From an uncultured Gammaproteobacteria bacterium (GTDB taxonomy: Bacteria > Patescibacteriota > Patescibacteriia > CAZBFB01): DNA of 63,086 bases. A program made the position numbers and the translations under genes. The stretch is taken from assembly GCA_964491085.1 (NCBI GenBank), contig CAZBFB010000046.1, forward strand, positions 1-63,086, read 5' to 3'. Position 1 is the stretch's first letter. Each line of letters opens with the position of its first letter. The notes below the pieces were generated by a model. That model was not told where the DNA came from. It did not search any database and was given only the letters and a program-made list of their open reading frames with translations. Shown piece by piece: positions 6,758 to 51,608 of the stretch.

Positions 6758-6772
6758 GTAGTCGTTCGGATT

Positions 6773-15763: not shown

Positions 15764-15776
15764 TATCGGGACAGTT

Positions 15777-16342
15777 ATGCGTTCCGTCGACATTTTGATT
15801 ACCGGCATTACCGGGTTTATTGGTCAGCATTTAGCCAATGTTTTGCAGGCCCAAGGCGCCAATGTTACCGGTATTACGAGCCAGTCAGATAAGGCGTCTC
15901 GCGGGGTTGCTTGTATTGATTTACGTGACCATGCCCGTCTTCGTGAACATATTCAAACCATTCGTCCCGCGATTATTTTTCATTTAGGAGCGCATGTGGC
16001 TCTTGATAGGAACTACGAGACCGCGCGTAGTTGTGTGGAAGCCAATATTCAAGGGACGTTTAATTTACTCGATGCCGTTACTTCTTTGTCAGCTACGGTT
16101 AAACGCGTTGTGTTTTTAAGTACGGAAGAAGTGTACGGTAGCAGTCCGATACCGTATCAAGAAGATCAGCCAGTATTTCCGCTATCAAGTATGGTGCGAT
16201 TCCAGAACGGATTGGCGAGGCGGCTGTTTGGCAGTCGGACATTACCAAAGCTAATAAATTATTGCGGTGGACGCCTTTAATCTCTTTGACAGACGGTCTT
16301 ACAAAAACGATTGCCTATTATCGAGAGGCGCTCTTAACATGA
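15777..16342 (+). pseudogene. Decayed SDR epimerase/dehydratase gene with an internal deletion and frameshift
   Basis: The N-terminal roughly 140 aa (ITGITGFIGQHL ... EDQPVFPLS) are in one frame. The C-terminal tail (IPERIGEAAVWQSDITKANKLLRWTPLISLTDGLTKTIAYYREAL*) is in another frame. The roughly 130 aa catalytic middle is missing. Confidence 0.75.
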
Positions 16343-32951: not shown

Positions 32952-34121
32952 ATGGAGAGAATATTTCAGAAGGTCGCTATTGTGCATCATAGTTACACGG
33001 TGACTAGTTTAGTCGAGGATGAACTTTTGCAGTATGTAAAGGGCAAGGCAGAAATGATTTTTTATATCACGCATCCTGTAAAAAATGCCCGAGATGGTCT
33101 TCCGCTCAATACGAAGGTTGAGGTGTATGAGCAGGGACAACTTGTCAAGACTATCAAGAGTATAAAAGTCTTTGGTCCAGAGGTGCTCTTTTTTATTAAA
33201 GACCTGCTTTTCACTCTGGGTTATTTTCTTTTACAAAAACAGAGAATCGATGTATTTTTTGGGATCGACAATCTCAACTCATTCGCCGGTATTCTCTTGA
33301 GGAAGTTGGGGAGAGTGCGTAAGGTGGTGTACTATGTGATTGACTATGTGCCAAAAAGGTTTGAGAACAGACTGTTGAATTCTATCTATCATTGGGTTGA
33401 TTTGTATTGTGTAAAAAATGCAGATCAAACATGGAATTTGTCGGATGCCATGGTGACTGCGCGTGAAGAGACGGGATTATCGCGACAGTATAGAACAAAA
33501 CAAATTACCGTTCCGGTGGGATGCCATCCCGTCGACCCCCTTGTTGGCGAAACGGAGACCGGTACCAAGAGAGTTGTGTTTCTTGGGATCCTGAACCATG
33601 AGCAGGGGATTGATACGTTTGTAGAGACACTGCCTTCTCTTATTCGGGTCGTCCCTGAAATGCGACTTGTTATCATCGGTTCCGGACCATTGGATGCGCA
33701 GTTACGACAACGAGTGCAGAAATTAGGACTTGCGTATGCGGTGGATTTTAAAGGATTTGTGAAGGAAAATAAAGATGTCGATGCGATGTTACGCACTTGT
33801 CATGTCGGTATCGCACCATACGAGGTGACGCCAACAAGTTTTAAGCATTTTACGGACCCGGGAAAGATAAAAACCTATCTTGGTGCCGGACTGCCCGTCG
33901 TGATGACAAATATATCGCATGTTGCTGACATGATTGATAAACGCAGAGCGGGGATTATTGTTGCGTCGAATAAAGATATTGCTGGGGCGGTTGTGTCGAT
34001 TTTTTTCGATAAAGATCGTCTTGTGCGGATGCGTCAGAGCGCCACGACTCTGGCACGCGAGTATGATTGGGCGTCTATATTTCAACGCGCATTTACGATG
34101 CTTTTCCAAGAGATAGTATGA
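32952..34121 (+). CDS. GT4-like glycosyltransferase (paralog of 22120..23280)
   Basis: VIIGSGPLDAQLR, DFKGFV, DPGKIKTYLGAGLPVVMTN. The N-terminal half is collinear with the 22120 ORF (WNLS, ...AREE...). Confidence 0.65.
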   Translation: MERIFQKVAIVHHSYTVTSLVEDELLQYVKGKAEMIFYITHPVKNARDGLPLNTKVEVYEQGQLVKTIKSIKVFGPEVLFFIKDLLFTLGYFLLQKQRIDVFFGIDNLNSFAGILLRKLGRVRKVVYYVIDYVPKRFENRLLNSIYHWVDLYCVKNADQTWNLSDAMVTAREETGLSRQYRTKQITVPVGCHPVDPLVGETETGTKRVVFLGILNHEQGIDTFVETLPSLIRVVPEMRLVIIGSGPLDAQLRQRVQKLGLAYAVDFKGFVKENKDVDAMLRTCHVGIAPYEVTPTSFKHFTDPGKIKTYLGAGLPVVMTNISHVADMIDKRRAGIIVASNKDIAGAVVSIFFDKDRLVRMRQSATTLAREYDWASIFQRAFTMLFQEIV

Positions 34122-34906
34122 GAAAATTTCGATCGCCATGGAAAAATGTTGGATATCTGTTCTACCGCTGGTTCGTACCACCCGCCAGCGAGATGCGATA
34201 TATTCCGCAAATTGTAATCCGATATAGTCGGTATGTTATGGATTGGTACCGGTACTCAAGGTTGCCCGGTGCAGAGAGGATGCGTGTAATAGATTCATGT
34301 CCGTGTGTACACGAGCGTGATGCGGCCACTGATGTCGATAGCCACTACTTTTATCAGGATGTATGGGCATTCCGAAAGATAGTGCTGTCTGGTGCGACAG
34401 AGCATGTAGATGTTGGGTCGCTTCTTGATTTCGTTGGCTGCCTCACCGCAGTGTGCTCTGTGGTCTATGTGGATATTCGTGTTCCCCGCGTTAAATTGGA
34501 TAATCTGAAGGTCAGAAAGGGGAGTATTCTCGCACTACCCTATGCCGATGCATCGGTACGTTCTTTATCATCACTGCATGTTGCCGAACATATCGGACTT
34601 GGTCGTTACGGTGATCCATTGGACTCGGCGGGAACACAAAAAGCATGTAGGGAGCTTACGCGCGTTTTGGCGCCAGGTGGAAATCTCTACTTCTCTCTTC
34701 CTGTCGGTAAGTCCCGTCTCTGCTTTAATGCGCATCGTATTCATATTCCACAAACCATTTTGCGGTATTTCGATGAGCTACAATTGGTTGAATTTTCGGG
34801 AGTGGATGATGAGGGACACTTTATGGGTAGTATCGATCCTGACGCACTGGCGCAGTCAGACTATGCATGCGGTATGTTCCATTTTAGGAAGAAAGAAACA
34901 GCATGA
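34118..34906 (+). CDS. Class I SAM-dependent methyltransferase (DUF268-like)
   Basis: LPYADASVRSLSSLHVAEHIGLGRYGDPLD and LAPGGNLYFSLPVG. The ATG overlaps the upstream stop (ATGA). Confidence 0.6.
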   Translation: MRKFRSPWKNVGYLFYRWFVPPASEMRYIPQIVIRYSRYVMDWYRYSRLPGAERMRVIDSCPCVHERDAATDVDSHYFYQDVWAFRKIVLSGATEHVDVGSLLDFVGCLTAVCSVVYVDIRVPRVKLDNLKVRKGSILALPYADASVRSLSSLHVAEHIGLGRYGDPLDSAGTQKACRELTRVLAPGGNLYFSLPVGKSRLCFNAHRIHIPQTILRYFDELQLVEFSGVDDEGHFMGSIDPDALAQSDYACGMFHFRKKETA

Positions 34907-35796
34907 GTATGCTCAATTGCGAGTTCTTATTTACTATTCGCGATCAGTATGGTAAACGTAGGGTTTACCGGATGCAACCGAGCGGGATTCTTAATGTGGA
35001 GTCACCATTTGGGAGTGATACATATAAAGAATCTTACGATCGTTTCGTAGAGGCATTCAAAGAGATGGGGTATTTTCGGAAATGGCTCAATGCCCGTCAA
35101 GGATCTTTGTACGTGTTGCAGAGAAGCTTTCTTCAAAAGATTATCGCTCGCCTCCTTACCCCGGTGCCGAAGATTTTTTCCTATGGAAATTTCCTTGATG
35201 TGGGTTGTAATACAGGAAATTTTCTCCATGCTCTTCCCGACCCATGGAACCGCTATGGTGTTGAGGTGAATCGAGAGGCATGTCAAGTTGTCAAGCGATA
35301 TCCCAATATTCGCGTTTTCAACACCTCCCTAGAGAAGTTCACTACTCCGCTGAGATTTGATTTTGTACGAGCATCTCATGTTATCGAACATGTGGAAGAC
35401 TACGAGAGGTTTCTGGAAAAAATGTATCACCTTATGGCGCCGAAAAGCTATGCACTCCTTTATACTCCTAATACACAGAGTTTTTCGTATGTTCTCTTTA
35501 AACGGTATTGGAGCGGGTTCGACGAGAGGACACATGTCAATCTTTTCAATCTAAAGAATCTTCAGGCGCTTTGTGAACGCTACGGTTTTATCGTAATTGC
35601 GACAGGTACCTATGATATGGGCATGACTGCACATTCTCTCTTGAAGTTGCTGCACATCAATGTCGCAAACACAGTCGGGTATGTCTTTTTTTGGTTTCTT
35701 TTTCTTGCATTGTATCCTTTTTGTTTCATTGCAAATGCATTTAAGCGTGATGGAGCACTGTACATCTATCTCATGAAGGATGAGAAAAAATCCTGA
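34903..35796 (+). CDS. Class I SAM-dependent methyltransferase with a C-terminal hydrophobic tail
   Basis: FLDVGCNTGNFL motif I and VRASHVIEHVED. Confidence 0.7.
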   Translation: MSMLNCEFLFTIRDQYGKRRVYRMQPSGILNVESPFGSDTYKESYDRFVEAFKEMGYFRKWLNARQGSLYVLQRSFLQKIIARLLTPVPKIFSYGNFLDVGCNTGNFLHALPDPWNRYGVEVNREACQVVKRYPNIRVFNTSLEKFTTPLRFDFVRASHVIEHVEDYERFLEKMYHLMAPKSYALLYTPNTQSFSYVLFKRYWSGFDERTHVNLFNLKNLQALCERYGFIVIATGTYDMGMTAHSLLKLLHINVANTVGYVFFWFLFLALYPFCFIANAFKRDGALYIYLMKDEKKS

Positions 35797-35801
35797 AATG
35801 T

Positions 35802-36824
35802 ATGTATCCAAAAATTTCAGTCGTGATTCCCGCCCATAATGAAGAGCAAAATTTTAAACGCTTGCTCCCTTCGCTTGAGAAGCAACAATATCCCAAAGGG
35901 TGTCTCGAATACATTGTAGTGAATGATGATTCCAATGATGGTACCAATGAGCTCGCGGAGACATTTGGGGCGCGAGTGATTTCAGTTAAAACCCATGACA
36001 TCGAGCTCAATAAAGGTATCGGTATGCACGTAGCAAGCGGAGAGTTCGTCTATTGGCTGGATGCTGACATGGAAATCTTTGGCAATAATTTTTTTGAACT
36101 TTTAGTACAACCACTTCAGGATAATCCAGCACTCCTGGGAAGTTTTACTAAGGAATTTGCACTTGATGGTTGTGATGCAAATGTTTTGCCTGCTCTGTTG
36201 CGGTTTATTTCTTATAATCCACTGCAACAAGATCCTCTTTATCAATTTTTTTCTCCATCGATTGATGAAACAATTGTTGAGCAAAAGAGTGACTTTTGTG
36301 TTTGTCGATTTTTTCCAGGGAGAATACCAGCGGTAGGGCGTATTATGTATCGAAGGGCAGAACTTATAAAAACCGCGGTTGGTAACAATAAATCTTTTGT
36401 GGATTTGGAAAGTGTAGAAATAGTCGCCCGCGCGGGGTATGAATTTTTTGCGTATGTGCCACAGGCAAAGATTCGACATTATCATGCCACTACACTGACC
36501 CAGCTTGTGCACAAAAGATTGAGAAATTTAGAGAATGATTATCTTCCCAACGTGGGTAATAAATATTATCTCTGGTTTAACCCTAATGATCCCAAGGATA
36601 TTTTGAAGATTGGAGGGTGGGTTTTGTACGCAAATCTTTTTATCCCGGAGTTTATTCGCGGTCTGGTAAAAGCAATTAAATTTAGAGATTATGCATTTTT
36701 TTGGCAACCCATTGTTTCAATTGCTACGACGGATGCTATTGTGTTTGGTTTTTTAAAAAAGTCCAGCGGAAGAAAATTTATCTTGCAATTACTGAAACAG
36801 TTACTGATGGCACTATTTCGGTAG
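35802..36824 (+). CDS. GT2-family glycosyltransferase
   Basis: ISVVIPAHNEEQNFKRLL, VNDDSNDGT, WLDADM. Confidence 0.8.
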   Translation: MYPKISVVIPAHNEEQNFKRLLPSLEKQQYPKGCLEYIVVNDDSNDGTNELAETFGARVISVKTHDIELNKGIGMHVASGEFVYWLDADMEIFGNNFFELLVQPLQDNPALLGSFTKEFALDGCDANVLPALLRFISYNPLQQDPLYQFFSPSIDETIVEQKSDFCVCRFFPGRIPAVGRIMYRRAELIKTAVGNNKSFVDLESVEIVARAGYEFFAYVPQAKIRHYHATTLTQLVHKRLRNLENDYLPNVGNKYYLWFNPNDPKDILKIGGWVLYANLFIPEFIRGLVKAIKFRDYAFFWQPIVSIATTDAIVFGFLKKSSGRKFILQLLKQLLMALFR

Positions 36825-36896: not shown

Positions 36897-39518
36897 ATGC
36901 GATTTCCCAATAAACTTTTTCGATCAGAATGGATGGTGCTGTGTATAGCGGTGGCGCTATTTGTGGTACCATTTTTTTGGTTCAAGAATGGAGAGGCCGA
37001 TTTCGGCGGGGATGCGAGCCGCTTATATTTTTATGATGCACTAAATTCATTGCGCAATGTTGGCGCGCACACAGTCGCGACCTTTGATGTGCCGAGTATC
37101 CACATGTTACCGTTTTTTGCGCTACTGGCATTATTGCAAGTGGTGTTCAGGAACCCCTCCGTGTTGCTATCTCTCGTGAATGGGTGGCTCTTCTCTTTTT
37201 CTTTTTTATCTGTGTATTTGGTGCTTCGGGTATTACAAGAAGAAGACGATTGTTCAGAAGGTGATGCGGGTTCTATTTTAGGTGGCTTATTTTACGCCTT
37301 ATCAGGAATTTTTGTATATAGCTGGCAACGCTATCTGCAAAGTTTTCATGCGATTGTGGTATATCCTTTTGTCATTTGGCTCTTTCTTTTGTTTTTGAAA
37401 TCGGGCAGGAAACGATATCTGCTTTATGCGATTCTTTTGACGGTTCCTTTTGCGCACCTTTTTTCATGGTCTAACTCTCCCGGATTTTTTTCGTTTTTTC
37501 CACTCGCGAGCATTGTCCTTGTTTGGTACGCGTGGCGTAGAAGTAAAGTAGTATTGTTGCTTAAGGGCATGGCGTTCCTGATGATACTAACATCACTGAT
37601 TCAAGCATTTCATTTGCTGCCGCAGGTCGCGAATATTATGCAACCATCAAGTGGAGTACGACAGCTAATATTTAGTGATGCTGGGAAATTAGAGCGCGGA
37701 TTAAATTATTTTACCGCAAACGCACCCTATGTGCGCCTGGTATACAACTTGCTCGGATTCCCTCAATATTATTTGTATCAAACAATAGGAGCACCTCCTG
37801 CGATTGTGGACGCTATTGAGCATTACAGTATTCGTTACATTGGCTTATTTTTTATGATTCCTTTGACCGTATGCCTGGCCAGTATGGTTGTCTTTATACG
37901 GAGGCGTCAAGGGATCAAGGATAGTCGGCACGCTGTGTTTATAGGTTGGTTATCTATTTTTTTGATAATGACGTTTTTTATGACAGCCAATTTATTTGGC
38001 AGCTGGGGACCATCCTTCTATCGTAGTTTATTCTGGATTCCCGGTTTTTCCATGTTCAGAAGTTTTTATGGCGCGTTTTCTAATGCGTTTATATTTTTTT
38101 ACGCGCTCTTGTTTGGATTTAGCTGTGCTATTGTATTTCGCGAACTACGGAGCCGCGTGATTCTGTACGGATATATCTTACTTTTGGTGGTTCCTTTATT
38201 TTATGGAGCGTTCCCTTTGTTTGCCGGAAAAGTGGCCAATATAGAATTAGACGGGGCAGTGCATATGAAAGCTTCCCTCAAACTTAAGCCGGCGTATGGC
38301 CAAGTATTACAGTGGCTACGCGAGACCCCACTAGATACCACGCTTCTGCTGTTGCCGTTGGTTAATTTTGATTATCAGGTAATTGAAGGAGAACGGGGTG
38401 GAGCGTATGTGGGAGCGCCATCTATTCCGTTTTTAACGGGAAGATCAACCTATGCCGGGCTTGGTACATTTGAATTTAATAAGAGTAAAGTGGCTTCGTA
38501 TAATGCCATTGCGCAGAAAATAGAACAGCGGGACTATCGTTCGTTGCAGAGGTTGTTTTCTTTTCTTCATATCGGGTTTATTTTTCATAATGCCAGTCCG
38601 GAGGTGTATGATAATTTTTTTGGATTTCCTTATTCACCAGTTCTGAAAAAATTGTTTCCCACGGCCGCGGATGTGCAGACCTTTGTGAATGCCCTAGGAT
38701 ATACTAAAGTGTTTTCTGCAGGACCGTATTCAATTTTTTATGATGCAGAATTGTTTGTTCCCCAGTTGTTTATTCCTCGCACTATCATAAAAGTTAGTGC
38801 ACCGGAAGAAATCGCGACGGTCATTAGTTCCCAGGATTCGTATGATCCGGCCACCGCATTTTATCAAACCGGCGGTAGTCCGGCCAAGCAAATTGATGTT
38901 ATACCCGGCGGCGTTTTTAATGGACCAGCGCTTGAGTTCAAGAAAATAACTAGCACAAAATATAGAATTAGGGCACACAAAATGACATCTAGTTTTCCTT
39001 TGGTATTCGGCGATTATTTTAATGATGGCTGGCGGCTTTATCCGCAGACAGTAAAGCGGCCATCATGTCAGCTATTTAATAAAAATGACATTACTTTTTT
39101 TGGCGTCTCCAATGAAGAGGAGAATATCTGGTGTCACGAAGGAATTATCAGTACTAGCGGCCAAGCATTCATTTCACAGCCATACGCTGGCTCGATTCAA
39201 AACCAAAACTTGCCGGCCGGAACGATTTTTGAAACTTGGTTCCAACGTCCGCTGTCCGCTTCAGCACACCTTAAGGTAAATGACTACGCCAACTCTTGGT
39301 GGGTTGATCTGGAACAATTGAGGAGAGATTTTCCTGACCGGGTGTGGCAAAATATCAATGGGAGTTATGAGGTTGAGTTTATTTTAGAATTTATTCCGCA
39401 ACGATATTTTTATATAGGAACCGCTGTTTCCCTGCTGACATTTTTTGGGATTGTCGGATATAGCATTAGTGTGTGGGTGAGAAGGAAACGCTTACCGTAT
39501 GAAACGAATCACAAATAA
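36897..39518 (+). CDS. Large polytopic membrane protein, putative GT-C-fold glycosyltransferase (AftD/DUF3367-like), paralog A
   Basis: 873 aa. A roughly 470-aa multi-TM N-domain carries FFWFKNGEADFGGDASRLYFYD and PGFSMFRSFYG motifs. A roughly 370-aa non-hydrophobic domain and a C-terminal TM anchor follow. The family call is from memory and needs an HMM search. Confidence 0.5.
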   Translation: MRFPNKLFRSEWMVLCIAVALFVVPFFWFKNGEADFGGDASRLYFYDALNSLRNVGAHTVATFDVPSIHMLPFFALLALLQVVFRNPSVLLSLVNGWLFSFSFLSVYLVLRVLQEEDDCSEGDAGSILGGLFYALSGIFVYSWQRYLQSFHAIVVYPFVIWLFLLFLKSGRKRYLLYAILLTVPFAHLFSWSNSPGFFSFFPLASIVLVWYAWRRSKVVLLLKGMAFLMILTSLIQAFHLLPQVANIMQPSSGVRQLIFSDAGKLERGLNYFTANAPYVRLVYNLLGFPQYYLYQTIGAPPAIVDAIEHYSIRYIGLFFMIPLTVCLASMVVFIRRRQGIKDSRHAVFIGWLSIFLIMTFFMTANLFGSWGPSFYRSLFWIPGFSMFRSFYGAFSNAFIFFYALLFGFSCAIVFRELRSRVILYGYILLLVVPLFYGAFPLFAGKVANIELDGAVHMKASLKLKPAYGQVLQWLRETPLDTTLLLLPLVNFDYQVIEGERGGAYVGAPSIPFLTGRSTYAGLGTFEFNKSKVASYNAIAQKIEQRDYRSLQRLFSFLHIGFIFHNASPEVYDNFFGFPYSPVLKKLFPTAADVQTFVNALGYTKVFSAGPYSIFYDAELFVPQLFIPRTIIKVSAPEEIATVISSQDSYDPATAFYQTGGSPAKQIDVIPGGVFNGPALEFKKITSTKYRIRAHKMTSSFPLVFGDYFNDGWRLYPQTVKRPSCQLFNKNDITFFGVSNEEENIWCHEGIISTSGQAFISQPYAGSIQNQNLPAGTIFETWFQRPLSASAHLKVNDYANSWWVDLEQLRRDFPDRVWQNINGSYEVEFILEFIPQRYFYIGTAVSLLTFFGIVGYSISVWVRRKRLPYETNHK

Positions 39519-42447
39519 AATTTTACAGGCAAGCGGAATAATTCGCGTTTTTTTCGCTAATTATATCGGTCGTCTTTTAGTACTCGTGGCAGCCGTACTT
39601 ATTGGTAGGCACATTTTTTTGTTTGACATTTACGAAACGACTCTTTTGTTATTGTTAATGGGGAGTACGTTGGCGATAGTGCATCCTGCCCTGATCGCTT
39701 TTTGCGCAATAGTGATGTTTATCAGCGCGCCATTTTATCATTTGCAAGGAAATATTAATGCGGCCGAGCACGCGGTGGTGTATGGCTATTATTTATTATG
39801 GTTGCTGGTGGCACATCAGGCCGGTTTCTGGCTTTGGGAGCGTAGTATAATGATTCGTCGGATGGGAGCAGTGATGCGCAGTCGCGAGCAATCGATCTAT
39901 TATTTTTTTAGGCGACTCGGTCGGCGGGCTGCGGAAATTACGGTTAAATTTAGCGTCGCCGCGCTACGCCGGGTAGTGCATTTTATATGGCGCAATAAGG
40001 CAGAGCTCGCACTGGCGATTGTATTATTTTTTATTCCGTTTTTTTGGTTTCAAAATGGAGAAGCTGATTTTGGCGGCGACTCGTCGCGGTTATATTTTTA
40101 TGACCCGTTGAATTGGTTGAAATCAATGGGGCTGTATGAAATCAACGCCAGCGGTTTTGACAATCCGAATTTTTTTATTATCCCGTTTCTGCTGTTGTTG
40201 CAAGGCCTGAAGTGGCTTTTTAGGAACAACGCATCAACCATGCTGGCGGTGTTTAATGGCATGTTGTTAAGCGGAGCGTTCTTGTCAGTCTATGGCACCG
40301 TACGGGTGTTTCTTTCCCATCGTGAAGATAAGCGTTATGTTCGCGCGGCCGCGATCATGGGCGCGCTCTTTTTTGTTTTGTCACAGAGCATAATGTATGG
40401 TTGGCAAAAATCTCTTTATACATTCCACCAGATAGCGGTCTATCCCTTGGTGGTGTTGCTGTGGTTAGCGTATATTCGTTCTCGCCGGTTTTTTTATATC
40501 TTAGTATCTCTTTTAGTAACCTTCGTATTTTCGGTTAATTTTAGTCTTTACTCGGCACCTTCTTTTTTTAGTTTTTTTATGTTTGCGTTTCCGTTGGTTT
40601 CTTTGTATGCCGTTTTTGTAAAACGGAAGAAGGTATGGACGCAAGGGTTTGTATTGTTCCTTGTTTTGTTTCTGTTACTGCACGCCTTCCAGCTTTTTCC
40701 TCAACTCGTGTCAATCTCGAATCCCGCAAGTAACATTTACGAAAATTTATTTACCAAACACGGCCAACTTGATCGGGGTTTGAATTATTTTCACGGAGTG
40801 CGCTCCATGGTACGGCTTATTTATAATATAGTTGGGTTTACGCAGTATTATCTGTATACGCAAACCGTATCTTCTCTGCCGTTATTGAAAATGTTGTTTA
40901 CCTTCGGCGTGCAGGTATTATATCTATTTCTTATATTCCCGATCATAATCGTCGGTGGATTTATGATAAGTTTAAAAGAACGCGTCCGGGTAATGCGGCT
41001 CGTTTTACTCACCTTGATGTCCCTCCTTTTGATAAGCCTATTCTTCATGACGGCTAATATATTCGGGATTTGGGGACCAAAAATGTATGCAGCGCTTTTT
41101 TCTGTCCCTGGATTTTCTATGTTTAGGAGTTTTTATGGTGTCTTTGCTATTGTCTCCGTCTATATACTAGCTCTGACTTTTGGTGTGGCCAGTCACTATG
41201 TTTTGGTCTTTTTGCCGCACCGTGTTATGCGCGCCATTTTTATCGGCGGGCTTCTCGTACTGCTTGGTTATAATGGCATTCCTTTTTTTCAGGGAAGTAT
41301 TGTGAATGTTGTTATGTCCGATACCAAAGGAGTGAAACTTTCCAATCATTTTAGGTCATCACTGGATGAGATGCTGATCCATGTCAGAAATGATACGCTT
41401 GATGCTCGAATAGTAACGTTACCCCTAACAAATTTTGGTTATCAGATCATTGATGGTGAATTTGGAGGTGCCTATGTCGGCCCTTCTCCTTTGGGAATGC
41501 TCGCCGGGCGGCAGGTTTTTAGCGGATTGGCCTCATTTGATTATCCGCCAAGCTCTGTATTTTCTCAAGAATTTATTCTAGATCGCCTGCGAGTGAAGGA
41601 TTATCGTACCCTTAATCGTTTGTTTTCGCTCCTCAACGTGGGCTATATATTTTATAATTCAAATCCCGATATATACCTTGATAAATTCATCGGCTGGCCC
41701 TACTCAAAAGCAGTGTGGGATGCCTTTCCTCTGTTTGCTGATTTCGATGGCTTTATAAAGCGTTTGGGCTACACCCCTATTTACAGTGCGGATACCTATA
41801 TATTGTACAATAACCAGGCCTATTTTTTGCCGCATATTTATATTCCTCTCCGCATAAAAAAAGTTGACAACGAAGGTCAAATGAAAGATAACTTGATCAA
41901 TGATTCGGGCTATGAATTACAAACAGTGTTTTATGTAACGGGTACCGCCGCTGACTCATTGATCGCAAAATTTTCCGATGGGCTGGCGCATCCTCCGATA
42001 CTTGAGATAAAAAAAATTAACACCACAAAATATCGTTTACTGATTAGTAATATTACTGCGAATTTTCCGCTCATTTTCAGTGAGCCGTTCCACCCTGGTT
42101 GGCGGCTGGCTTTGGAGTCGGTAGCCGGCGCGTCAGGGACTGATGGTATAACTGCTTCTAGACAAATAGGGCTCCTCGATGAAAAAAATCACACGCGGGC
42201 AAACCAATACGCCAATGGTTGGTGGATTGATCTCAATTATATACGCGATCATTACGGGCAAGCGCTTAAACAAAACGTAGATGGTAGTTATACTATGAAC
42301 GCAACCCTTATTTTTGCTCCCCAAGAAAATTTTTATACCGGAGCCGCGATTTCTTTACTAGCTCTTATTATTATCGTGCTTCTTACTATTGTGCTCGGCG
42401 TCGTGTATGGTATCCAGGCGCGGGGTAGAGTAGCGCAGGGAAAATAA
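39499..42447 (+). CDS. Large polytopic membrane protein, putative GT-C-fold glycosyltransferase, paralog B, with an extra roughly 165-aa N-terminal membrane module
   Basis: 982 aa, collinear with paralog A: FFWFQNGEADFGGDSSRLYFYD, PGFSMFRSFYG, LPLTNFGYQIIDGEFGGAYVG, NQYANGWWIDL. Confidence 0.5.
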   Translation: MKRITNKILQASGIIRVFFANYIGRLLVLVAAVLIGRHIFLFDIYETTLLLLLMGSTLAIVHPALIAFCAIVMFISAPFYHLQGNINAAEHAVVYGYYLLWLLVAHQAGFWLWERSIMIRRMGAVMRSREQSIYYFFRRLGRRAAEITVKFSVAALRRVVHFIWRNKAELALAIVLFFIPFFWFQNGEADFGGDSSRLYFYDPLNWLKSMGLYEINASGFDNPNFFIIPFLLLLQGLKWLFRNNASTMLAVFNGMLLSGAFLSVYGTVRVFLSHREDKRYVRAAAIMGALFFVLSQSIMYGWQKSLYTFHQIAVYPLVVLLWLAYIRSRRFFYILVSLLVTFVFSVNFSLYSAPSFFSFFMFAFPLVSLYAVFVKRKKVWTQGFVLFLVLFLLLHAFQLFPQLVSISNPASNIYENLFTKHGQLDRGLNYFHGVRSMVRLIYNIVGFTQYYLYTQTVSSLPLLKMLFTFGVQVLYLFLIFPIIIVGGFMISLKERVRVMRLVLLTLMSLLLISLFFMTANIFGIWGPKMYAALFSVPGFSMFRSFYGVFAIVSVYILALTFGVASHYVLVFLPHRVMRAIFIGGLLVLLGYNGIPFFQGSIVNVVMSDTKGVKLSNHFRSSLDEMLIHVRNDTLDARIVTLPLTNFGYQIIDGEFGGAYVGPSPLGMLAGRQVFSGLASFDYPPSSVFSQEFILDRLRVKDYRTLNRLFSLLNVGYIFYNSNPDIYLDKFIGWPYSKAVWDAFPLFADFDGFIKRLGYTPIYSADTYILYNNQAYFLPHIYIPLRIKKVDNEGQMKDNLINDSGYELQTVFYVTGTAADSLIAKFSDGLAHPPILEIKKINTTKYRLLISNITANFPLIFSEPFHPGWRLALESVAGASGTDGITASRQIGLLDEKNHTRANQYANGWWIDLNYIRDHYGQALKQNVDGSYTMNATLIFAPQENFYTGAAISLLALIIIVLLTIVLGVVYGIQARGRVAQGK

Positions 42448-42458
42448 CCAATATTTAT

Positions 42459-43409
42459 ATGGGACAAGGGCAAGACAGATTCAATAAAATTTTTTTGATC
42501 GTTATTGCCGTGGGGATTGCCTACACGGTGCTTCACGTTACGATACTTGAAGCATTTTTAATTATTTATATTGCCACAGCAGTACTTTTTGACTGGAATG
42601 GGTCAGTGCCATTATTGGGTGGGATTGTTTTGTACGCCTTTACCAGGATACTAGTCAAGAGCCGTCCCGATTTTAATGCGGGGCAGCTTGAATTGTATAG
42701 CTGGTATCTGATAGGAACAGGACTCCTGCTGATGGTATGGAAACGTGTCTTAAATACTCGAGAGCGTATTTTCTTTTGGTTGAAGTCAGTTGTACCCAAG
42801 TTGAAGTCAGTTGTACAAATACGGCCACAGATTCATATGCCGAGGATAGTGGTACCGATACCTCGTTTGCGCTGGCATGATTTTTTTTCCAGCTTTAGAT
42901 TGGCTCGACTGTGGCTGACTCAATTTGTCGCTTCCACCATGCCGTATCTTCGCAATGTATTTAAGCAGGGCGTGGTTTTTACTGGGCGAGTACTAGTGAT
43001 GGGCAGTCGTTATTGTGTGTTGGAATTTATTAATTTATTTAAGGTGACATGTCAGTATGGCCGGCGAGTGTATCATATCGTTTTTGGTCATTTTTCTCGA
43101 CGAATGAAGGGCAACATAATTAGCATGGTCGCGGCGTTGTTTATATTGTTTTTCTTTACCAAATTTAATGCCGGTAGTGTGTTGCTTTTACTTTTTGCCT
43201 TAGCGATTTTTTTATTCAATCTTGACCGCCGTCTTCCCTTGGCGGCCAGCATCGGATTTTTTTTGGCAACCGCCGGAGCGCTTATTGCTGGCGTTAAAGA
43301 AACTATTATCGAAACATTGGTACTATACGCCTATTACTGTATGCTAATAGGAGTCCTGGGAGCTTTGTATACCGGCAGAAAAAAAATAATCCATGATTCG
43401 GTTTATTAA
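42459..43409 (+). CDS. Hypothetical polytopic membrane protein
   Basis: 316 aa with several hydrophobic helices and no recognisable catalytic motif. The ORF is open and tightly packed between the GT-C-like genes. Confidence 0.55.
   Translation: MGQGQDRFNKIFLIVIAVGIAYTVLHVTILEAFLIIYIATAVLFDWNGSVPLLGGIVLYAFTRILVKSRPDFNAGQLELYSWYLIGTGLLLMVWKRVLNTRERIFFWLKSVVPKLKSVVQIRPQIHMPRIVVPIPRLRWHDFFSSFRLARLWLTQFVASTMPYLRNVFKQGVVFTGRVLVMGSRYCVLEFINLFKVTCQYGRRVYHIVFGHFSRRMKGNIISMVAALFILFFFTKFNAGSVLLLLFALAIFLFNLDRRLPLAASIGFFLATAGALIAGVKETIIETLVLYAYYCMLIGVLGALYTGRKKIIHDSVY
42780..42816 (+). repeat. Tandem duplication, 21-bp period (ttgaagtcagttgtac x2) encoding LKSVVPK-LKSVVQ
   Basis: A 16-nt identical core repeated 21 nt apart inside the 42459 ORF. 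Confidence 0.85.
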
Positions 43410-45189
43410 ACATATTGCGTCAGCTGGTTTACAGCGGATGTCCAAACTATTAGGGAGATGGACAAATCCATTTTTTGTATTTCTGGGACTTACCTTGAGC
43501 GTTGTATTGCCGCTTTTTTTCAAGCCGGGCTTTTTGTTTTTGCTTGATTTTGCACCGGTACCCCAGTCATTGTTTCCCGAGGTGATCACGCGCAGCGATT
43601 TTTTGTTTCGGGCTAGCTGGTGGTTGTTAGATCTGTTTTTGCCGGGTGGTTTTTTGCAGAAACTTTTTTTGGGAGTAACTTTTTTTATGGCCGGGTTTGG
43701 TATGTTTCGTTTTTTGGCCTGGCGCGGAACAGCCGAGAGTAGCTCGTGGGCGCACTATTTTGGAGCATTTCTTTATTTGTTTAATCCCTTTGTATATTCA
43801 CGAATTCTCGTTGGACAATGGATTTTGATTGCCGCCTATGCCTTGTTGCCTTGGTTTGTCCAGGCGTTTATGGAATTTATCGAACGCCCATCATATCGCG
43901 GGGCATGGTTGACTGCTGTGTGGTGGACGGCCATATTTAATATAAATCTTCATTTAGGCGTAATAAGTATTATTTTTCCGATTATTTATGTAATAAGTAT
44001 CTTTTTCAAAATTCCCACAAAATTTTTTACGCTACCGCGCCTTAGATGCTATCTGGTTTTTATTGTTTTAATGGTTATCGGTAATGGCTATTGGATGGGG
44101 CCATTAGTCACCGGCCGTTCCCCAGTTGGTACTTTTGTGTTGACTACCATTAGCGACGTTGATATTTTTTCTTTTTTTACGCGAGCTGATCCAGTCCATG
44201 GCGTCATCTGGAATACAGCTGCCATGTATGGATTTTGGGCTGATGATGATGTGCGTTATTTTTCGCAGAAATTTTTTGCGCCATACTGGTTTTATGTTTT
44301 CTTTGTTATTTTTGGATTGGTACTATGGGGAATAATTAGTAGCCGTTTGCGGCGGGGGCAGGACAAGGTGGCGGCAATCGCTCTTAGTTTTTCTTTATGG
44401 ATTACCTTACTTGGTACAGGTATCCTGGCATTTTATGTAGCCGTGGGGGTGGCGCACCCTTTTTTTAAATCGTCGGTTCTTTGGTTATATAATCACGCTG
44501 TCTTTTTAAAAGGGTTTAGGGAGCCGCATAAATTTATTGCCCTTTTAGTATTTGTATACTGCGTCTTTAGTGCGGCTGGGGTAGCTGATATTCTGGGTCG
44601 TCTCGAGCAGTGGCAGGGACGATCTTGGTGGTGGTTAAAAATGATTACGCCAGGACTGCTTATAGTCATTCCTCTGATGTATTCTCCGGGAATGCTTTGG
44701 GGATTTTATGGCCAACTCCGCCCCGCCGATTATCCTAAGAGCTGGTTTGAGGTTGATCGTTTATTGGTTAATGATCAGGCAGAGTTTAAGGCGTTATTTT
44801 TGCCCTGGCACCAGTATATTTATCTGGCGTTTGCTAAAACAGTAATTGTTAATCCGGCCGATCAGTTTTTTCACAAGCCAATTATAGCCGGTGATAATAT
44901 TGAATTTGGTTCTATTTATACGCAAAGCACCCGATCAGAGTCAAAATATATTGAGGCGGATATTCTTGGTAGTCAAGGGAAGTTTGTTAAAATTAAGGGA
45001 AAGCCGCCCGAGTTGAGTTTAGGAGAAAAACTAAATCATCTCAATATCAAATACATAATTATGGCCAAGGAATCGGATGCGTTTAATTATACGTTTGTCC
45101 AGAATTCTCCCGATATAAAATTGGTGTATGATTCGCCGGAGTTGGCGGTATATCAAAATTTGTTATTCGCGACTGAAACAGTAAATTAG
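43393..45189 (+). CDS. Polytopic membrane protein, putative GT-C-like glycosyltransferase, paralog C (shorter)
   Basis: 598 aa, roughly 440 aa multi-TM plus a soluble C-terminus. FLKGFREPHKF aligns with FSMFRSFYGAF of paralogs A and B. Confidence 0.4.
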   Translation: MIRFIKHIASAGLQRMSKLLGRWTNPFFVFLGLTLSVVLPLFFKPGFLFLLDFAPVPQSLFPEVITRSDFLFRASWWLLDLFLPGGFLQKLFLGVTFFMAGFGMFRFLAWRGTAESSSWAHYFGAFLYLFNPFVYSRILVGQWILIAAYALLPWFVQAFMEFIERPSYRGAWLTAVWWTAIFNINLHLGVISIIFPIIYVISIFFKIPTKFFTLPRLRCYLVFIVLMVIGNGYWMGPLVTGRSPVGTFVLTTISDVDIFSFFTRADPVHGVIWNTAAMYGFWADDDVRYFSQKFFAPYWFYVFFVIFGLVLWGIISSRLRRGQDKVAAIALSFSLWITLLGTGILAFYVAVGVAHPFFKSSVLWLYNHAVFLKGFREPHKFIALLVFVYCVFSAAGVADILGRLEQWQGRSWWWLKMITPGLLIVIPLMYSPGMLWGFYGQLRPADYPKSWFEVDRLLVNDQAEFKALFLPWHQYIYLAFAKTVIVNPADQFFHKPIIAGDNIEFGSIYTQSTRSESKYIEADILGSQGKFVKIKGKPPELSLGEKLNHLNIKYIIMAKESDAFNYTFVQNSPDIKLVYDSPELAVYQNLLFATETVN

Positions 45190-47558: not shown

Positions 47559-48202
47559 ATGCTCATCTCGGCTCACGAACACAAAATAATTATCCAACCC
47601 CAAGCCCTTGATGGTGAAATTGTGCTTGAAGCGGAGGCGGATCTCATGTATCTTTTTTTATCGGTGAAAATACGCCGGCTGACGCTTCACTGATTTGTCG
47701 GTTGAACGGTCGGGGTGCGCGGGCAAATATTTTTGGATTTGATTTGCGTGCCCAGGGAAGCCATCGTTTGAGTCTGCGCTTAGAGTATGGTGCGGAACAA
47801 ACCTGGGGTCATGTATGGCTCACGTCAGTGTTGAGCGGTTCGGCAAAAAGCAAAGTTGATGCCATGCTTAAGATGGAGCAAACCGCCACCGGCGCGGATG
47901 GTTATTTTGCGCATCATACCTTATTGATTCCGACAAATGAACAAGCTAAACCATCGAGTCATACCCGTCCGGCGTTGGAAATTTTAGCGCACGACATTCG
48001 CGCCGGGCATGCCGCCACTACCAGCTCCCTTGATCCGGCTATGCTACTCTATCTGGGCACGCGCGGCATTGCTTCGGTCAGCGCGCGCCGGTTGTTGGTG
48101 GAAGGATTTGTGGCTCGTGCCATCACCCGTATTCCCGATCCGACCGCCCGCCAAGCGTGTGAAAAAATAGTCGGTGAGACATTAATGTCATTCTGGACTT
48201 GA
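47559..48202 (+). CDS. sufD: SufD-like protein, reading frame interrupted (apparent -1 shift at a T7 run, 47653-47659)
   Basis: The ATG 47559 frame stops at 47691-47693. The frame carrying the SufD C-terminal homology (ALEILAHDIRAGHAATTSSLDPAMLLYLGTRGI) is open from 47630. The two overlap around ttttttt. Confidence 0.65.
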
Positions 48203-48285: not shown

Positions 48286-49488
48286 ATGTCTGATTTCAAA
48301 TCCCACTTCCCCATCTTCACGCATCACCCTGATCTCGTGTATCTCGACAGCGCCGCCACCACGCAAAAACCAGCGAGCGTGTTGGCCGCGATGCAGGATT
48401 TTTATGAGCACACGAATGCCAACATTTATCGTGGCCGGTATGATTTAAGTGAGATGGCCACAGCCCAGTATGAGGCCGGGCGCGATCAAGTTAAAAATTT
48501 TATCAACGCGCAGTGGCGTGAAGAAATTATTTTTACTCATGGTACGACCGAGGGGATTAATGCGGTGGCCTACACCTGGGGCGAACAGAATATAAAAACT
48601 GGCGATGAAATCGCGCTGACATACTTGGAGCACCATGCCAACATTGTGCCGTGGCTGGAGCTGGCCCGGCGGAAAGGCGCGGTGGTGAAAGCGATTGACA
48701 TTACGGATGATGGAAATATTGATCTGGTAAGTTTGACGCAGACAATCTCGGCCAAAACCAAACTGGTAGCCGTAACCCATGTGTCTAATGTGCTTGGAAC
48801 CATCGTGCCGTTGGAGCAAGTTATTGCCCAAGCCAAAGCGGTTGGGGCGCGCGTCTTGGTTGATGCGGCGCAGAGTATTGCTCACTTGCCGGTTGATGTG
48901 CAAAACATGGATTGTGACTGGTTGGTTTTTTCCGGACACAAAATGTATGGGCCCACCGGCGTGGGGGTGTTGTATGGTAAGCGTGAGGTGTTGGAGACGA
49001 TGTCGCCATTTTTGTTTGGCGGCGGTATGATTGATGAGGTTGATTTCCAGCGTGCGACCTGGGCGCCCATTCCGGAACGATTTGAGAGCGGCACGCCGCC
49101 GATTGCGGAAGTGATCGGTTTGAGTGCGGCGATTACCTGGCTGCAAACAATCGGCTGGCCGACGATTCAAGCGCATGAGCAAGTACTGTCAACCCGGGCG
49201 CGATCAGCGCTGCGCGCACTAGCGGGTGTAGAAATACAAGGCAACAATGATGCGAACGCCAGCGGAGTAATTTCGTTTATTATGCCGGGGATTCATCCGC
49301 ATGATATTGCCAGTATTGCCAACGAATTCGGGGTGGCCGTGCGGGCTGATCATCATTGTGCTCAACCATTATTGAAACGGCTTGGTGTCTCGGCCATCAC
49401 CCGCGCCAGTATTGGAATCTATAATGAGTCAAATGATATCGATCGGCTCATTGCGGCGCTGGCGCACGCGCGTAAAATTTTTCATTAA
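48286..49488 (+). CDS. sufS: Cysteine desulfurase SufS (class II aminotransferase V)
   Basis: YLDSAATTQKP, FSGHKMYGPTGVG (PLP Lys), RADHHCAQP (active-site Cys). Confidence 0.92.
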   Translation: MSDFKSHFPIFTHHPDLVYLDSAATTQKPASVLAAMQDFYEHTNANIYRGRYDLSEMATAQYEAGRDQVKNFINAQWREEIIFTHGTTEGINAVAYTWGEQNIKTGDEIALTYLEHHANIVPWLELARRKGAVVKAIDITDDGNIDLVSLTQTISAKTKLVAVTHVSNVLGTIVPLEQVIAQAKAVGARVLVDAAQSIAHLPVDVQNMDCDWLVFSGHKMYGPTGVGVLYGKREVLETMSPFLFGGGMIDEVDFQRATWAPIPERFESGTPPIAEVIGLSAAITWLQTIGWPTIQAHEQVLSTRARSALRALAGVEIQGNNDANASGVISFIMPGIHPHDIASIANEFGVAVRADHHCAQPLLKRLGVSAITRASIGIYNESNDIDRLIAALAHARKIFH

Positions 49489-50504: not shown

Positions 50505-51608
50505 ATGAGTGAGAAAATAAAACAATATATAAATGGTCAGGTGGATAGTTTGATGGCGAGTGAAGCCAAGAAGCGTCGTTTTCAAGCCATGGTGGGTGTG
50601 GCAGTTATTGTTTTATTTATAGTTAGCTCAATTGTGGTTAACAATGGCGTGCAGGCCTTAAACCAAGCCAATGGTACTTATGGGTATTATGAGAATAACT
50701 TTGGTTATAAAGTTACTAGAACTTCTGATGCCTTGCCACGTGCGGTTACTAACTTTACTTGTACTGCTAATGCTAGCACCAGAGTGGTTTGTTCTTGGAC
50801 GCCACCCAGTCAAACTTTGCAAAGCACCAGTTTTGATAACTTTAGGAAGTATAATATTTACTATTCCACTTCAGACACTACTCCGGATAACGATGATACG
50901 CTTTGGACCTCGACAAATGATTCTACCTTGGCTACATTGGCCACCGGCACAACGAGCATTACCGGTTTGACCGCCAGCACCGCCTATTACTTCGCTTTGT
51001 ACTCAAATGATACTAACTTCAACGATTCAGCTACTTCCAACGTGCAAAGCGCCACCACCCAGGCGACCAGTACTAGCAGTGGTGTAGTTGGCGCTTCGCC
51101 TTCTTCTGGCAGTAGCGGTGGTAGTACTAGCACTCCGACGACTACAACCACAACTACTACTACAACGACCACGACTCCTTCTACCACAACCACAACCACG
51201 ACTCCTTCGAGCACCACCCCCGGCGCCAGTTTGGGAGTTACCACCCAAACTCCGTCCGCGACTGAAGCCCAAGGCGTAGTAGTGCCGACAGAAACATTGC
51301 GCGCCGGTAACTTCGCTTACAATGCCGCTCGGGTTGCCAACTTCCAAGTAGAAGCCAAGAGCGCAGTCGTAGTGAAGAATGGTATTGATACCGCGCTGGG
51401 TGCTAAAGTGTTCAATACCTTGTTCGTCAAGAATATTGCCAAGGGCAAGCAGTGGTGGGCAACCTATGTCAATGCTTATGTATATGGCGGGTATCCTATC
51501 AAAGCCATCAAGCAATCCATCAAGTTTGGCGGCAAGACTGTTCACCCCACACGACCGTGGACTGACTGGAAGAACTCGGCTGACTACAAGGCCTATATCA
51601 ACCGCTAA
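50505..51608 (+). CDS. Membrane-anchored/secreted surface protein with an Fn3-like domain, a Ser/Thr-rich linker and a C-terminal domain of unknown function
   Basis: N-terminal TM (AMVGVAVIVLFIVSSIVV). Fn3-like pattern (VTNFTC..VVCSWTPP..YNIYYS..TGLTASTAYYFALYS). The linker is STPTTTTTTTTTTTTTPSTTTTTTTPSSTTPG. Confidence 0.7.
   Translation: MSEKIKQYINGQVDSLMASEAKKRRFQAMVGVAVIVLFIVSSIVVNNGVQALNQANGTYGYYENNFGYKVTRTSDALPRAVTNFTCTANASTRVVCSWTPPSQTLQSTSFDNFRKYNIYYSTSDTTPDNDDTLWTSTNDSTLATLATGTTSITGLTASTAYYFALYSNDTNFNDSATSNVQSATTQATSTSSGVVGASPSSGSSGGSTSTPTTTTTTTTTTTTTPSTTTTTTTPSSTTPGASLGVTTQTPSATEAQGVVVPTETLRAGNFAYNAARVANFQVEAKSAVVVKNGIDTALGAKVFNTLFVKNIAKGKQWWATYVNAYVYGGYPIKAIKQSIKFGGKTVHPTRPWTDWKNSADYKAYINR

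Follow-up and report, generated by a model that had tools for sequence, protein, structure and literature searches.

The 63,086-nucleotide contig CAZBFB010000046.1 (GenBank assembly GCA_964491085.1, forward strand, analyzed over its full length and called the window here) is titled as an uncultured Gammaproteobacteria bacterium and is placed by GTDB in the Patescibacteriota (Patescibacteriia; CAZBFB01). Positions 322 to 45189 of the window form one sugar-oriented locus of ~45 kb, which is ended by a block of four plus-strand open reading frames (ORFs) covering 36897 to 45189. All four encode polytopic membrane proteins (hydropathy and AlphaFold secondary structure), and they follow one another with overlapping or nearly abutting ends: ORF1 and ORF2 overlap by 20 nt, ORF2 and ORF3 are separated by 11 nt, and ORF3 and ORF4 overlap by 17 nt. 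Upstream, 72 nt separate the end of a GT2-family glycosyltransferase gene from the start of ORF1, and downstream, 22 nt separate the end of ORF4 from the start of sufC. A preliminary description of this DNA, made by a model from the sequence and its translated ORFs, had given this arrangement with coordinates and lengths that agree exactly with the ORF list. The four genes, three of them predicted to encode glycosyltransferases of the C-type fold (GT-C), are as follows.

36897 to 39518, plus strand: ORF1, 873 aa, predicted AftD-like GT-C glycosyltransferase of the family here called A1fam (AlphaFold2, Foldseek, conserved columns, hydropathy)
39499 to 42447, plus strand: ORF2, 982 aa, second predicted A1fam GT-C with the same conserved loops (paralogy with ORF1)
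42459 to 43409, plus strand: ORF3, 316 aa, polytopic accessory protein (hidden Markov model [HMM] of positional counterparts, codon usage)
43393 to 45189, plus strand: ORF4, 598 aa, predicted compact GT-C of the AftD N-terminal domain/MmpA type, family A2fam (NCBIfam, AlphaFold2, Foldseek, hhalign)

Structures of ORF1 and ORF4 were modeled with AlphaFold2 (ORF1: predicted local distance difference test [pLDDT] 91.5, predicted TM-score [pTM] 0.91; ORF4: pLDDT 93.4, pTM 0.92) and compared with PDB structures using Foldseek. The best match to both models was AftD of Mycobacterium abscessus (6w98_A; ORF1: E = 2.4e-7 over 705 columns; ORF4: E = 6e-10, TM-score 0.63, root-mean-square deviation [rmsd] 5.3 Å), followed only by other GT-C enzymes, namely STT3, PglB, AglB, ArnT, DPY19, AftA, Pmt4 and ALG12. 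The top 15 matches of ORF1 and the top 18 of ORF4 were all GT-C structures, with probabilities of 0.98 to 1.00. These models show that ORF1 and ORF4 adopt the GT-C fold and that AftD is their closest match among solved structures. Being large and polytopic and encoded where a glycan locus ends, the proteins might also be expected to act as transporters or permeases, for example as exporters of the glycan made by the locus, and transporters of the major facilitator superfamily (MFS) and LeuT type do occur in the weak tail of the Foldseek results. These were the first non-GT-C matches, yet their probability was ≤0.23 and their TM-score ~0.1, and no transporter family in Pfam was matched. As the fold comparison gives GT-C, the transporter explanation is effectively refuted, and we assign it almost no weight.

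Detection by sequence was far less direct. Searches of PDB sequences with single sequences and with profiles A1 to A4 returned no meaningful match, so that a residue-level alignment to AftD was not possible; a profile built only from those ORF4 relatives that match PF11847 (A3) was tried as a bridge to AftD and failed. Direct Pfam searches, suggested in the preliminary description as a check on the GT-C clan (PF11847 and PF09586), gave no match to any model at E 0.1 for the four proteins, NCBIfam returned nothing for ORF1 to ORF3, and YfhO (PF09586) was likewise unmatched (E ≤1e-1) among the 104 A1fam and A2fam members scanned.

ORF1 and ORF2 are collinear paralogs (BLASTP: 37% identity over 833 aa, E = 5e-164), and the motifs from which this had been proposed were all found in the translations: PFFWF[KQ]NGEADFGGD[AS]SRLYFYD, FFMTAN[LI]FG.WGP, PGFSMFRSFYG, LPL.NF.YQ.I.GE.GGAYVG and N.YAN.WW.DL, together with a C-terminal transmembrane (TM) anchor. 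ORF1 has ~11 to 13 TM helices and an outside domain of ~390 aa, and its C-terminal TM helix is followed by a basic tail, RRKRLPYETNHK. A word-indexed search with ORF1 yielded 105 homologs that carry no Pfam domain in the GT-C part, except for the last and weak one, which carries PF11847 and shares the C-terminal KINPTKY...VNGYANAW region with ORF1. In an alignment of 52 ORF1 relatives (A1), residues P25, W28, G37, G38, D39, L43, Y375, F379, P382, G383 and R388 are invariant and D35, R42 and D47 are conserved at ≥90%; PF11847 matched none of these 52 members in a Pfam scan. An exhaustive profile search of 1.84 billion representatives retrieved 1,654 proteins at E ≤1e-30 (clusters at 50% identity, a lower bound) and 4,597 at E ≤1e-10. 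A1fam is thus a large family that is not covered by any curated Pfam or NCBIfam model. Long forms of the family (~1,250 aa, e.g., P0035 with 1243 aa) have ~400 extra residues within the outside domain, inserted between the positions of ORF1 residues 638 and 673, which might be added carbohydrate-binding modules, as in AftD.

Comparable arrangements were collected by a pattern scan of 185,579 species genomes, which gave 42 related loci (43 with the window included; loci are numbered with the prefix L here), with A1fam and A2fam genes assigned using our own HMMs. The nearest partners of ORF1 and ORF2 in L002 are two separate genes (46 to 47% identity, vs 41% to each other): ORF2 groups with the second L002 gene and with L003 (47%), and not with ORF1 (41%). 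Because each is closer to a separate L002 gene, the duplication that gave rise to ORF1 and ORF2 predates these lineages.

ORF4 is more remote. The preliminary description had counted it as a third paralog, and the kinship itself stood, though only as remote homology at the level of profiles: ORF4 has no BLASTP similarity to ORF1 or ORF2, while A1 and an alignment of 52 ORF4 relatives (A2) are linked by hhalign with a probability of 98.1% (E = 1.1e-13, 443 columns). The proposed equivalent motif, FLKGFREPHKF, is present in the 598-aa protein, and hhalign pairs PGFSMFR with GFREPHKF as had been guessed. Against NCBIfam, ORF4 matched MmpA (NF053599; E = 5.4e-39, residues 31 to 511, profile positions 6 to 440 of 543) at 134.2 bits, below the equivalog cutoff of 210 bits; by sequence, ORF4 is an MmpA homolog, not an equivalog. 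Fourteen of the 52 ORF4 relatives match PF11847 (GT-C_AftD, best E = 6.8e-14), and others match the Pfam families DUF6541, PTPS_related, GtrII and PMT_2, which we take to belong to the GT-C clan. Invariant residues across the 52 A2fam sequences are D52, K90, N131, P132, R376, K380 and P471-W472-H473. The outside domain of ORF4 has ~160 aa and carries the motif LPWHQY, and the protein lacks a C-terminal anchor.

The N-termini of ORF1 and ORF4 are basic, as are several short loops (RRQGIKDSRH and RELRSR in ORF1; RLRRGQDK in ORF4). On the basis of these positive-inside charges and the helices of the models, the N-terminus is predicted to be cytoplasmic and the following parts to lie outside the membrane: the first loop (ORF1 28 to 64, ORF4 ~43 to 69), the motif loop (ORF1 364 to 394 with PGFSMFR, ORF4 ~369 to 381 with GFREPHKF) and the soluble domain (ORF1 443 to 834, ORF4 440 to 598). 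An outside position of the acidic first loop and the soluble domain had been anticipated in the preliminary description, which had also named a transporter or permease fold, or a cytoplasmic acidic loop, as findings that would speak against a GT-C assignment. Neither was obtained in the tests that were run, and the earlier GT-C reading is supported. In ORF1, D39, D35 and D47 fall in the first outside loop and R388 in the PGFSMFR loop; D52 of ORF4 falls in the first outside loop, and R376 and K380 fall in the GFREPHKF loop. ORF1, ORF2 and ORF4 all keep the invariant residues of their families and so do not have the appearance of decayed enzymes. In AftD, K39 and D41 of the first loop, as well as E251, K361 and D474, are essential (bioRxiv 10.1101/2019.12.22.885152); by position after TM1 and by conservation, though not by superposition, D39 of ORF1 and D52 of ORF4 would be the counterparts of AftD D41.

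The third gene of the block is not a GT-C. ORF3 has two to three N-terminal TM helices, a basic loop of ~150 aa (23 K/R vs 5 D/E) and four C-terminal TM helices. Codon statistics identify ORF3 as a real gene (−3.97 log-likelihood per codon in its own frame vs ~−4.3 in other frames), and its GC1/2/3 pattern is like that of its neighbors. A contig from a different sequencing run carries the same 316-aa gene call, and on a second contig the C-terminal end was called. The word-indexed search found only ORF3 itself, but the resulting view of ORF3 as an orphan was overturned by positional homologs and HMMs: membrane-protein counterparts of 266 to 312 aa adjoin an ORF4-type gene in the three loci nearest to the window (L002:17339-18139, L003:5985-6923 and L045:9131-9997), and an HMM of these three recovered ORF3 among 1,075 ORFs (E = 2.4e-10). 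Descent from a decayed GT-C fragment was also rejected (hhalign against A1 and A2: probability 0.3%). ORF3 has no BLASTP similarity to ORF2, and its family has no Pfam match at E ≤1 and no PDB match. By these comparisons ORF3 is a member of a small, fast-evolving family of membrane partners, separate from the GT-C proteins and always found beside an ORF4-type gene. A four-member HMM of the family (A4) matched residues 16 to 166 of P0114, a 771-aa ORF4-type protein (E = 4.3e-15); in that protein the ORF3-type module and the ORF4-type enzyme form one chain, which argues for physical cooperation between ORF3 and ORF4. In L048, the P0114 gene and an fn3-protein gene are present without an ORF1-type gene nearby, and two AbiEii-type toxin genes (L048:1552-4635) lie directly upstream of P0114.

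Smaller proteins recur in the same setting. A jackhmmer search found 43 ORFs in 29 loci encoding proteins of ~115 aa with four hydrophobic segments between GT-C genes (e.g., L047:7660-8013 and L047:12039-12374), each ≤129 nt from a GT-C gene, in Microgenomates loci (L004 to L041). They have invariant Asp, Glu and Trp residues and no annotated Pfam domain. A4 matched two of them (E = 4e-5 and 4e-4), and hhalign of their alignment (A5) against A4 gave 46%; the reciprocal HMM of the ~115-aa partners missed ORF3. In ORF2, an N-terminal extension of ~165 aa (39499 to 39993) contributes two to three TM helices and a basic stretch, seen in the alignment of ORF2 to ORF1 as a 152-aa insertion after ORF1 residue 8. 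The extension matched the ORF2-like protein of L002 (E = 6e-7), whose own extension matched the small-protein HMM (E = 6e-4), and the gene order "A1 - small - A1" mirrors "ORF1 - extended ORF2". A direct profile test of A5 against the ORF2 N-terminus was not significant. The extension may represent a copy of the small partner protein that became fused to ORF2; homology of the C-terminal half of ORF3 and of the ORF2 extension to the ~115-aa partners is suggestive but unproven. The four C-terminal helices of ORF3 and the ~115-aa partners have the size and helix count expected of a GtrA-type flippase, with no detectable GtrA homology.

Such fusion and tight linkage with small membrane partners fit the formation of a complex, and would also suit an explanation in which one or more of the proteins, with ORF4 as the main candidate, are noncatalytic scaffolds or lipid-handling adaptors of GT-C fold. 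The MmpA family is the only named database match of ORF4, and MmpA has been proposed as a membrane anchor for a complex, with no shown activity (PMC8698533); AftD itself has a nonenzymatic partner role with TmaT (bioRxiv 10.64898/2026.07.31.741767). However, in each family all 52 diverse members aligned keep the first-loop Asp and the basic motif loop unchanged, as active GT-Cs do, a Foldseek comparison suggests that MmpA may itself be a glycosyltransferase (bioRxiv 10.64898/2026.07.31.741767), and the locus contains no mycolate or trehalose-lipid chemistry, only sugar-nucleotide and glycosyltransferase genes. A purely structural role is accordingly a poor prospect in our judgment, and catalytic GT-Cs are the preferred assignment.

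The arrangement of the block is not particular to this contig. At least two A1fam genes occur in 34 of the 43 loci, the usual order being one or two genes of ~800 aa and then one or two of ~1,250 aa. Where ≥3 kb of sequence is available downstream (28 loci), an A2fam gene lies ≤3 kb from the last A1fam gene in 22 loci, and the two genes often overlap by 4 nt. The recurring layout is therefore one to four ORF1-type genes and then one ORF4-type gene, with methyltransferase, GT4 and GT2 genes beside or between the GT-C genes, and this gene order is conserved across Patescibacteria. Informative titles among the loci name Falkowbacteria, Levybacteria, Gottesmanbacteria, Woesebacteria, Parcubacteria, Saccharibacteria and "Patescibacteria group". 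About twenty records overall are titled "uncultured Gammaproteobacteria" or "Gammaproteobacteria bacterium" (L005, L009, L012, L015 to L018, L020, L024, L026, L027, L029, L031, L034, L035, L036, L038 and L041); as many of them share the gene order of Levybacteria and Gottesmanbacteria, these titles are probably placeholders or misassignments. One homolog, P0009, is labeled Nanoarchaeota. In L045, the locus of the closest relative of ORF4, a 748-aa polytopic protein (L045:2667-4913) adjoins the A1-like gene; it has no Pfam match on record and matches neither A1 nor A2, and the "FDENHY" loop after its TM1 resembles the PMT/ArnT type by eye, so that it may represent a fourth kind of GT-C in the cluster. 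No report relevant to GT-C or AftD-like enzymes in the Candidate Phyla Radiation (CPR), or to such arrays there, was found in the literature searched.

The remainder of the sugar-oriented locus encodes ~12 NAD-dependent dehydratases/epimerases, two genes of the 3,5-epimerase type, a nucleotidyltransferase, two DegT aminotransferases, a formyltransferase, a PIG-L deacetylase, a 2-oxoglutarate (2OG) oxygenase, an S-adenosylhomocysteine (SAH) hydrolase, four methyltransferases, of which one is FkbM-type, and glycosyltransferases of the GT2 (eight) and GT4 (four) families. The genes that bear on the block are listed below, with a membrane protein found beyond it.

5471 to 6757, plus strand: Wzx/MOP-type flippase candidate, 428 aa, ~10 TM helices (Polysacc_synt 2.7e-8, Polysacc_synt_3 5.7e-6)
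6773 to 7714, plus strand: GtrB/PgfS/ArnC-type GT2, 313 aa (Pfam GT2, NCBIfam, hydropathy)
32952 to 34121, plus strand: GT4 glycosyltransferase (Pfam); relatives beside or inside GT-C arrays elsewhere
34067 to 34906, plus strand: S-adenosylmethionine (SAM)-dependent methyltransferase (Pfam); relative in one locus only
34903 to 35796, plus strand: SAM-dependent methyltransferase (Pfam); relatives beside or inside GT-C arrays elsewhere
35802 to 36824, plus strand: GT2-family glycosyltransferase, 340 aa (Pfam Glycos_transf_2, E = 1.2e-18)
50505 to 51608, plus strand: membrane-anchored fn3 protein, 367 aa (Pfam fn3), with a Ser/Thr run of 33 in 40 residues, TTTTTTTTTTTTTPSTTTTTTTPSS

A GtrB-like gene, to which the preliminary description had linked the GT-C proteins, is indeed present in the locus, at 6773 to 7714, some 30 kb upstream of the block. 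In NCBIfam it matches PgfS (2.5e-64) and ArnC (8.4e-46) over their full length without reaching either equivalog cutoff, and hydropathy gives two C-terminal TM peaks (235 to 253 and 272 to 290); in L045, a homolog (1e-64) lies between the A1-like and A2-like genes. Its product is, judging from these matches, a probable polyprenyl-phosphate sugar synthase making the lipid-linked donor. The GT2 immediately upstream of ORF1 (35802 to 36824) was rejected for this role, having no TM segment by hydropathy and only partial, weak NCBIfam matches; its relatives occur near the module in ~20 related loci. The methyltransferases were likewise considered as MtrP equivalents and gave no specific NCBIfam match. 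The Wzx-type flippase candidate is directly upstream of the GtrB-type gene, and just upstream of this pair (5471 to 7714) lie a DAO-family FAD oxidoreductase (2454 to 3689), a PfkB kinase and the SAH hydrolase. The DAO oxidoreductase and the GtrB-like GT2 are also close together in L045, and the oxidoreductase might modify the lipid-linked sugar. Elsewhere in the locus, the match of a 175-aa ORF (15753 to 16280, plus strand) to the NAD-dependent epimerase/dehydratase domain is confined to its N-terminal half (profile positions 1 to 135 of 240), and the ORF may be a split or truncated gene. A promoter and terminator scan for operon limits gave counts at chance level.

Downstream of the block, a suf operon lies between ORF4 and the fn3 protein. 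An ORF at 47702 to 48202 (plus strand), after sufC and sufB and before a class V aminotransferase (SufS-like, 48286 to 49488), is either a short SufD or a truncated gene. In L002, L003, L045/L046 and L048, homologs of the fn3 protein are encoded 0.2 to 1.5 kb downstream of the ORF4-type gene, and the fn3 protein of the window is a possible O-glycosylation target (acceptor) or partner.

The contents of the locus could also accommodate GT-Cs that act like oligosaccharyltransferases or ligases, transferring en bloc an oligosaccharide assembled on polyprenyl diphosphate and flipped by Wzx to a surface protein or wall polymer. STT3, PglB and AglB are the next-best structural matches after AftD; a Wzx-type flippase is present with twelve cytoplasmic glycosyltransferases, no Wzy polymerase or O-antigen ligase was recognizable among the scanned ORFs, and a Ser/Thr-rich membrane protein is a conserved neighbor of ORF4-type genes. 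Against this, AftD ranked first for both models and no STT3 or PglB Pfam match was obtained. The WWDYG-type motif is not conserved: the only WW pairs in ORF1 (WWV, 801) and ORF2 (WWI, 908) are in the C-terminal sandwich, where W801 is invariant within the consensus AWxIxP and the second Trp is not retained. A single en bloc transfer would hardly call for three different enzymes in succession, and no priming phosphoglycosyltransferase was found among the ~50 larger window ORFs scanned, whereas a monophosphate-sugar synthase of the GtrB/ArnC type is present. We therefore consider en bloc transfer unlikely, and favor the stepwise use of lipid-linked monosaccharides by AftD-like GT-Cs.

Comparison with characterized systems places the block within a well-known superfamily while setting it apart from each. 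AftD (PDB 6W98, PF11847) shares the order of a GT-C membrane domain followed by a periplasmic domain, and the essential Asp just after TM1. It is, however, a protein of ~1,400 aa with 16 TM helices, three carbohydrate-binding modules and an acyl carrier protein (ACP)-binding C-terminal bundle (bioRxiv 10.1101/2019.12.22.885152), whereas ORF1, ORF2 and ORF4 are of 598 to 982 aa with at most one C-terminal TM helix, and the structure-based identity is 12%. No arabinan is known from the CPR host, nor did the window show genes for making decaprenyl-phospho-arabinose. With no PF11847 match in ORF1, ORF2 or ORF4 and a different architecture, the three proteins fall outside the AftD family. MmpA (NCgl2761/Rv0226c) resembles ORF4 in size, in its ~10 to 11 TM helices and in having one outside domain near the C-terminus, and its gene, too, is in a locus with an AftD-type gene and methyltransferases. 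MmpA is homologous to the N-terminal part of AftD and is needed for trehalose corynomycolate acetylation and export (PMC8698533); its phenotype concerns acetyl-trehalose monocorynomycolate, which organisms of the kind studied here lack.

The logic of the Gtr and Pgf systems (GtrA/GtrB/GtrC; CsbB-YfhO; PgfS-PgfM1/M2), in which a polyprenyl-phosphate sugar is made by a GT2 with two C-terminal TM helices and transferred outside the membrane by one or more GT-C enzymes, matches the one proposed here. In streptococci, GtrB/PgfS and GT-C enzymes glycosylate Ser/Thr-rich regions outside the membrane (bioRxiv 10.1101/2024.05.05.592596), and the Ser/Thr-rich membrane proteins that act as acceptors there have a comparable protein here as a conserved neighbor. 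Unlike in those systems, the GT-Cs of the block are not of the YfhO family, a GtrA-family flippase was not found in the ORFs scanned, the synthase gene is 30 kb away, and the conserved unit consists of three GT-Cs and partner proteins. STT3, PglB and AglB have the same overall GT-C architecture and are second-tier structural matches (probability 1.00), but with no STT3 Pfam match, lower TM-scores and an rmsd much larger than that of AftD. A further organizational parallel is with mycobacterial arabinan assembly, which uses a lipid-linked monosaccharide donor: EmbC-EmbA-EmbB and the Aft enzymes are tandem paralogous GT-Cs with large outside domains that act successively, and partly as hetero-oligomers, on one polymer, and a small 4-TM GtrA-like protein, Rv3789, is encoded alongside. 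Tandem paralogous GT-C genes with a small 4-TM protein alongside are also what is seen here; there is, however, no detectable sequence relationship to the Emb proteins, and AftA is only a weaker structural match.

Taken together, we think it likely that the block is an extracytoplasmic glycosylation module forming the outward-facing end of a CPR surface-glycan locus. In this reading, ORF1 and ORF2 would be nonredundant paralogs of an unannotated AftD-like GT-C family, ORF4 a third, compact GT-C and ORF3 its small polytopic partner. In the mechanism that we propose, cytoplasmic enzymes of the locus would make unusual nucleotide sugars (amino, formylated, methylated or deoxy), and the GtrB-type GT2 would load the sugar onto polyprenyl phosphate. 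The lipid-linked sugar would then be flipped, with the small partner or the Wzx-like protein as flippase candidates. Outside the membrane, the first-loop Asp (D39 in ORF1, D52 in ORF4) could act as base while the Arg/Lys of the PGFSMFR/GFREPHKF loop holds the phosphate, allowing inverting transfer of the sugar onto an extracytoplasmic acceptor bound by the soluble domain. Possible acceptors are glycans of the wall or surface, or surface proteins rich in Ser/Thr, for example the fn3 protein (50505 to 51608). Several different GT-Cs in a row would imply successive or branching additions, possibly by a hetero-complex, like EmbA/EmbB/EmbC and the Aft enzymes.

Several observations weigh against this interpretation. 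All four proteins stay below the cutoff of every Pfam and NCBIfam model, no PDB sequence was matched, and the pairing of D39 and D52 with AftD D41 does not derive from superposition. Transferase activity of A1fam and A2fam members is a prediction from the models, and the choice of acceptor is a guess. Among named proteins, the closest relative of ORF4 is MmpA, for which a scaffold role was first proposed and no transferase activity has been demonstrated (PMC8698533). The GtrB-type gene lies 30 kb from the block, and its co-occurrence with the module, which the preliminary description had suggested analyzing across genomes, is rare (2 of 42 related loci within ±10 kb, both weak matches, plus L045). 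Lastly, the scan of the ~50 larger ORFs revealed neither a priming phosphoglycosyltransferase nor a GtrA-family protein.

Much of bacterial diversity belongs to the CPR, whose members are almost all uncultivated and attach to their hosts via the cell surface. What is described here is a new family and gene arrangement within the well-known GT-C superfamily, and the presence of GT-Cs as such will not surprise a specialist. Through the analysis, a protein family with no Pfam or NCBIfam model gains an assigned fold and a probable type of reaction, together with candidate catalytic residues (D39 and R388 in ORF1; D52, R376 and K380 in ORF4) and a candidate acceptor protein. A wider generalization, which we offer as a doubtful speculation, is that many CPR bacteria, above all Microgenomates, possess an assembly line outside the membrane in which two to five different AftD-like GT-Cs, each paired or fused with a small 4-TM partner, build lipid-linked sugars (possibly methylated or formylated) into a surface polymer or glycoproteins. 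If true, a stepwise lipid-monosaccharide pathway in the style of arabinogalactan synthesis would exist far outside the Actinobacteria, and the small partners would constitute a new class of donor-delivery subunits or flippases. The AftD/MmpA lineage, discussed so far only for the Mycobacteriales, is extended to a distant phylum, which may help to interpret MmpA itself, and the module provides a first handle on how CPR bacteria build their surface.

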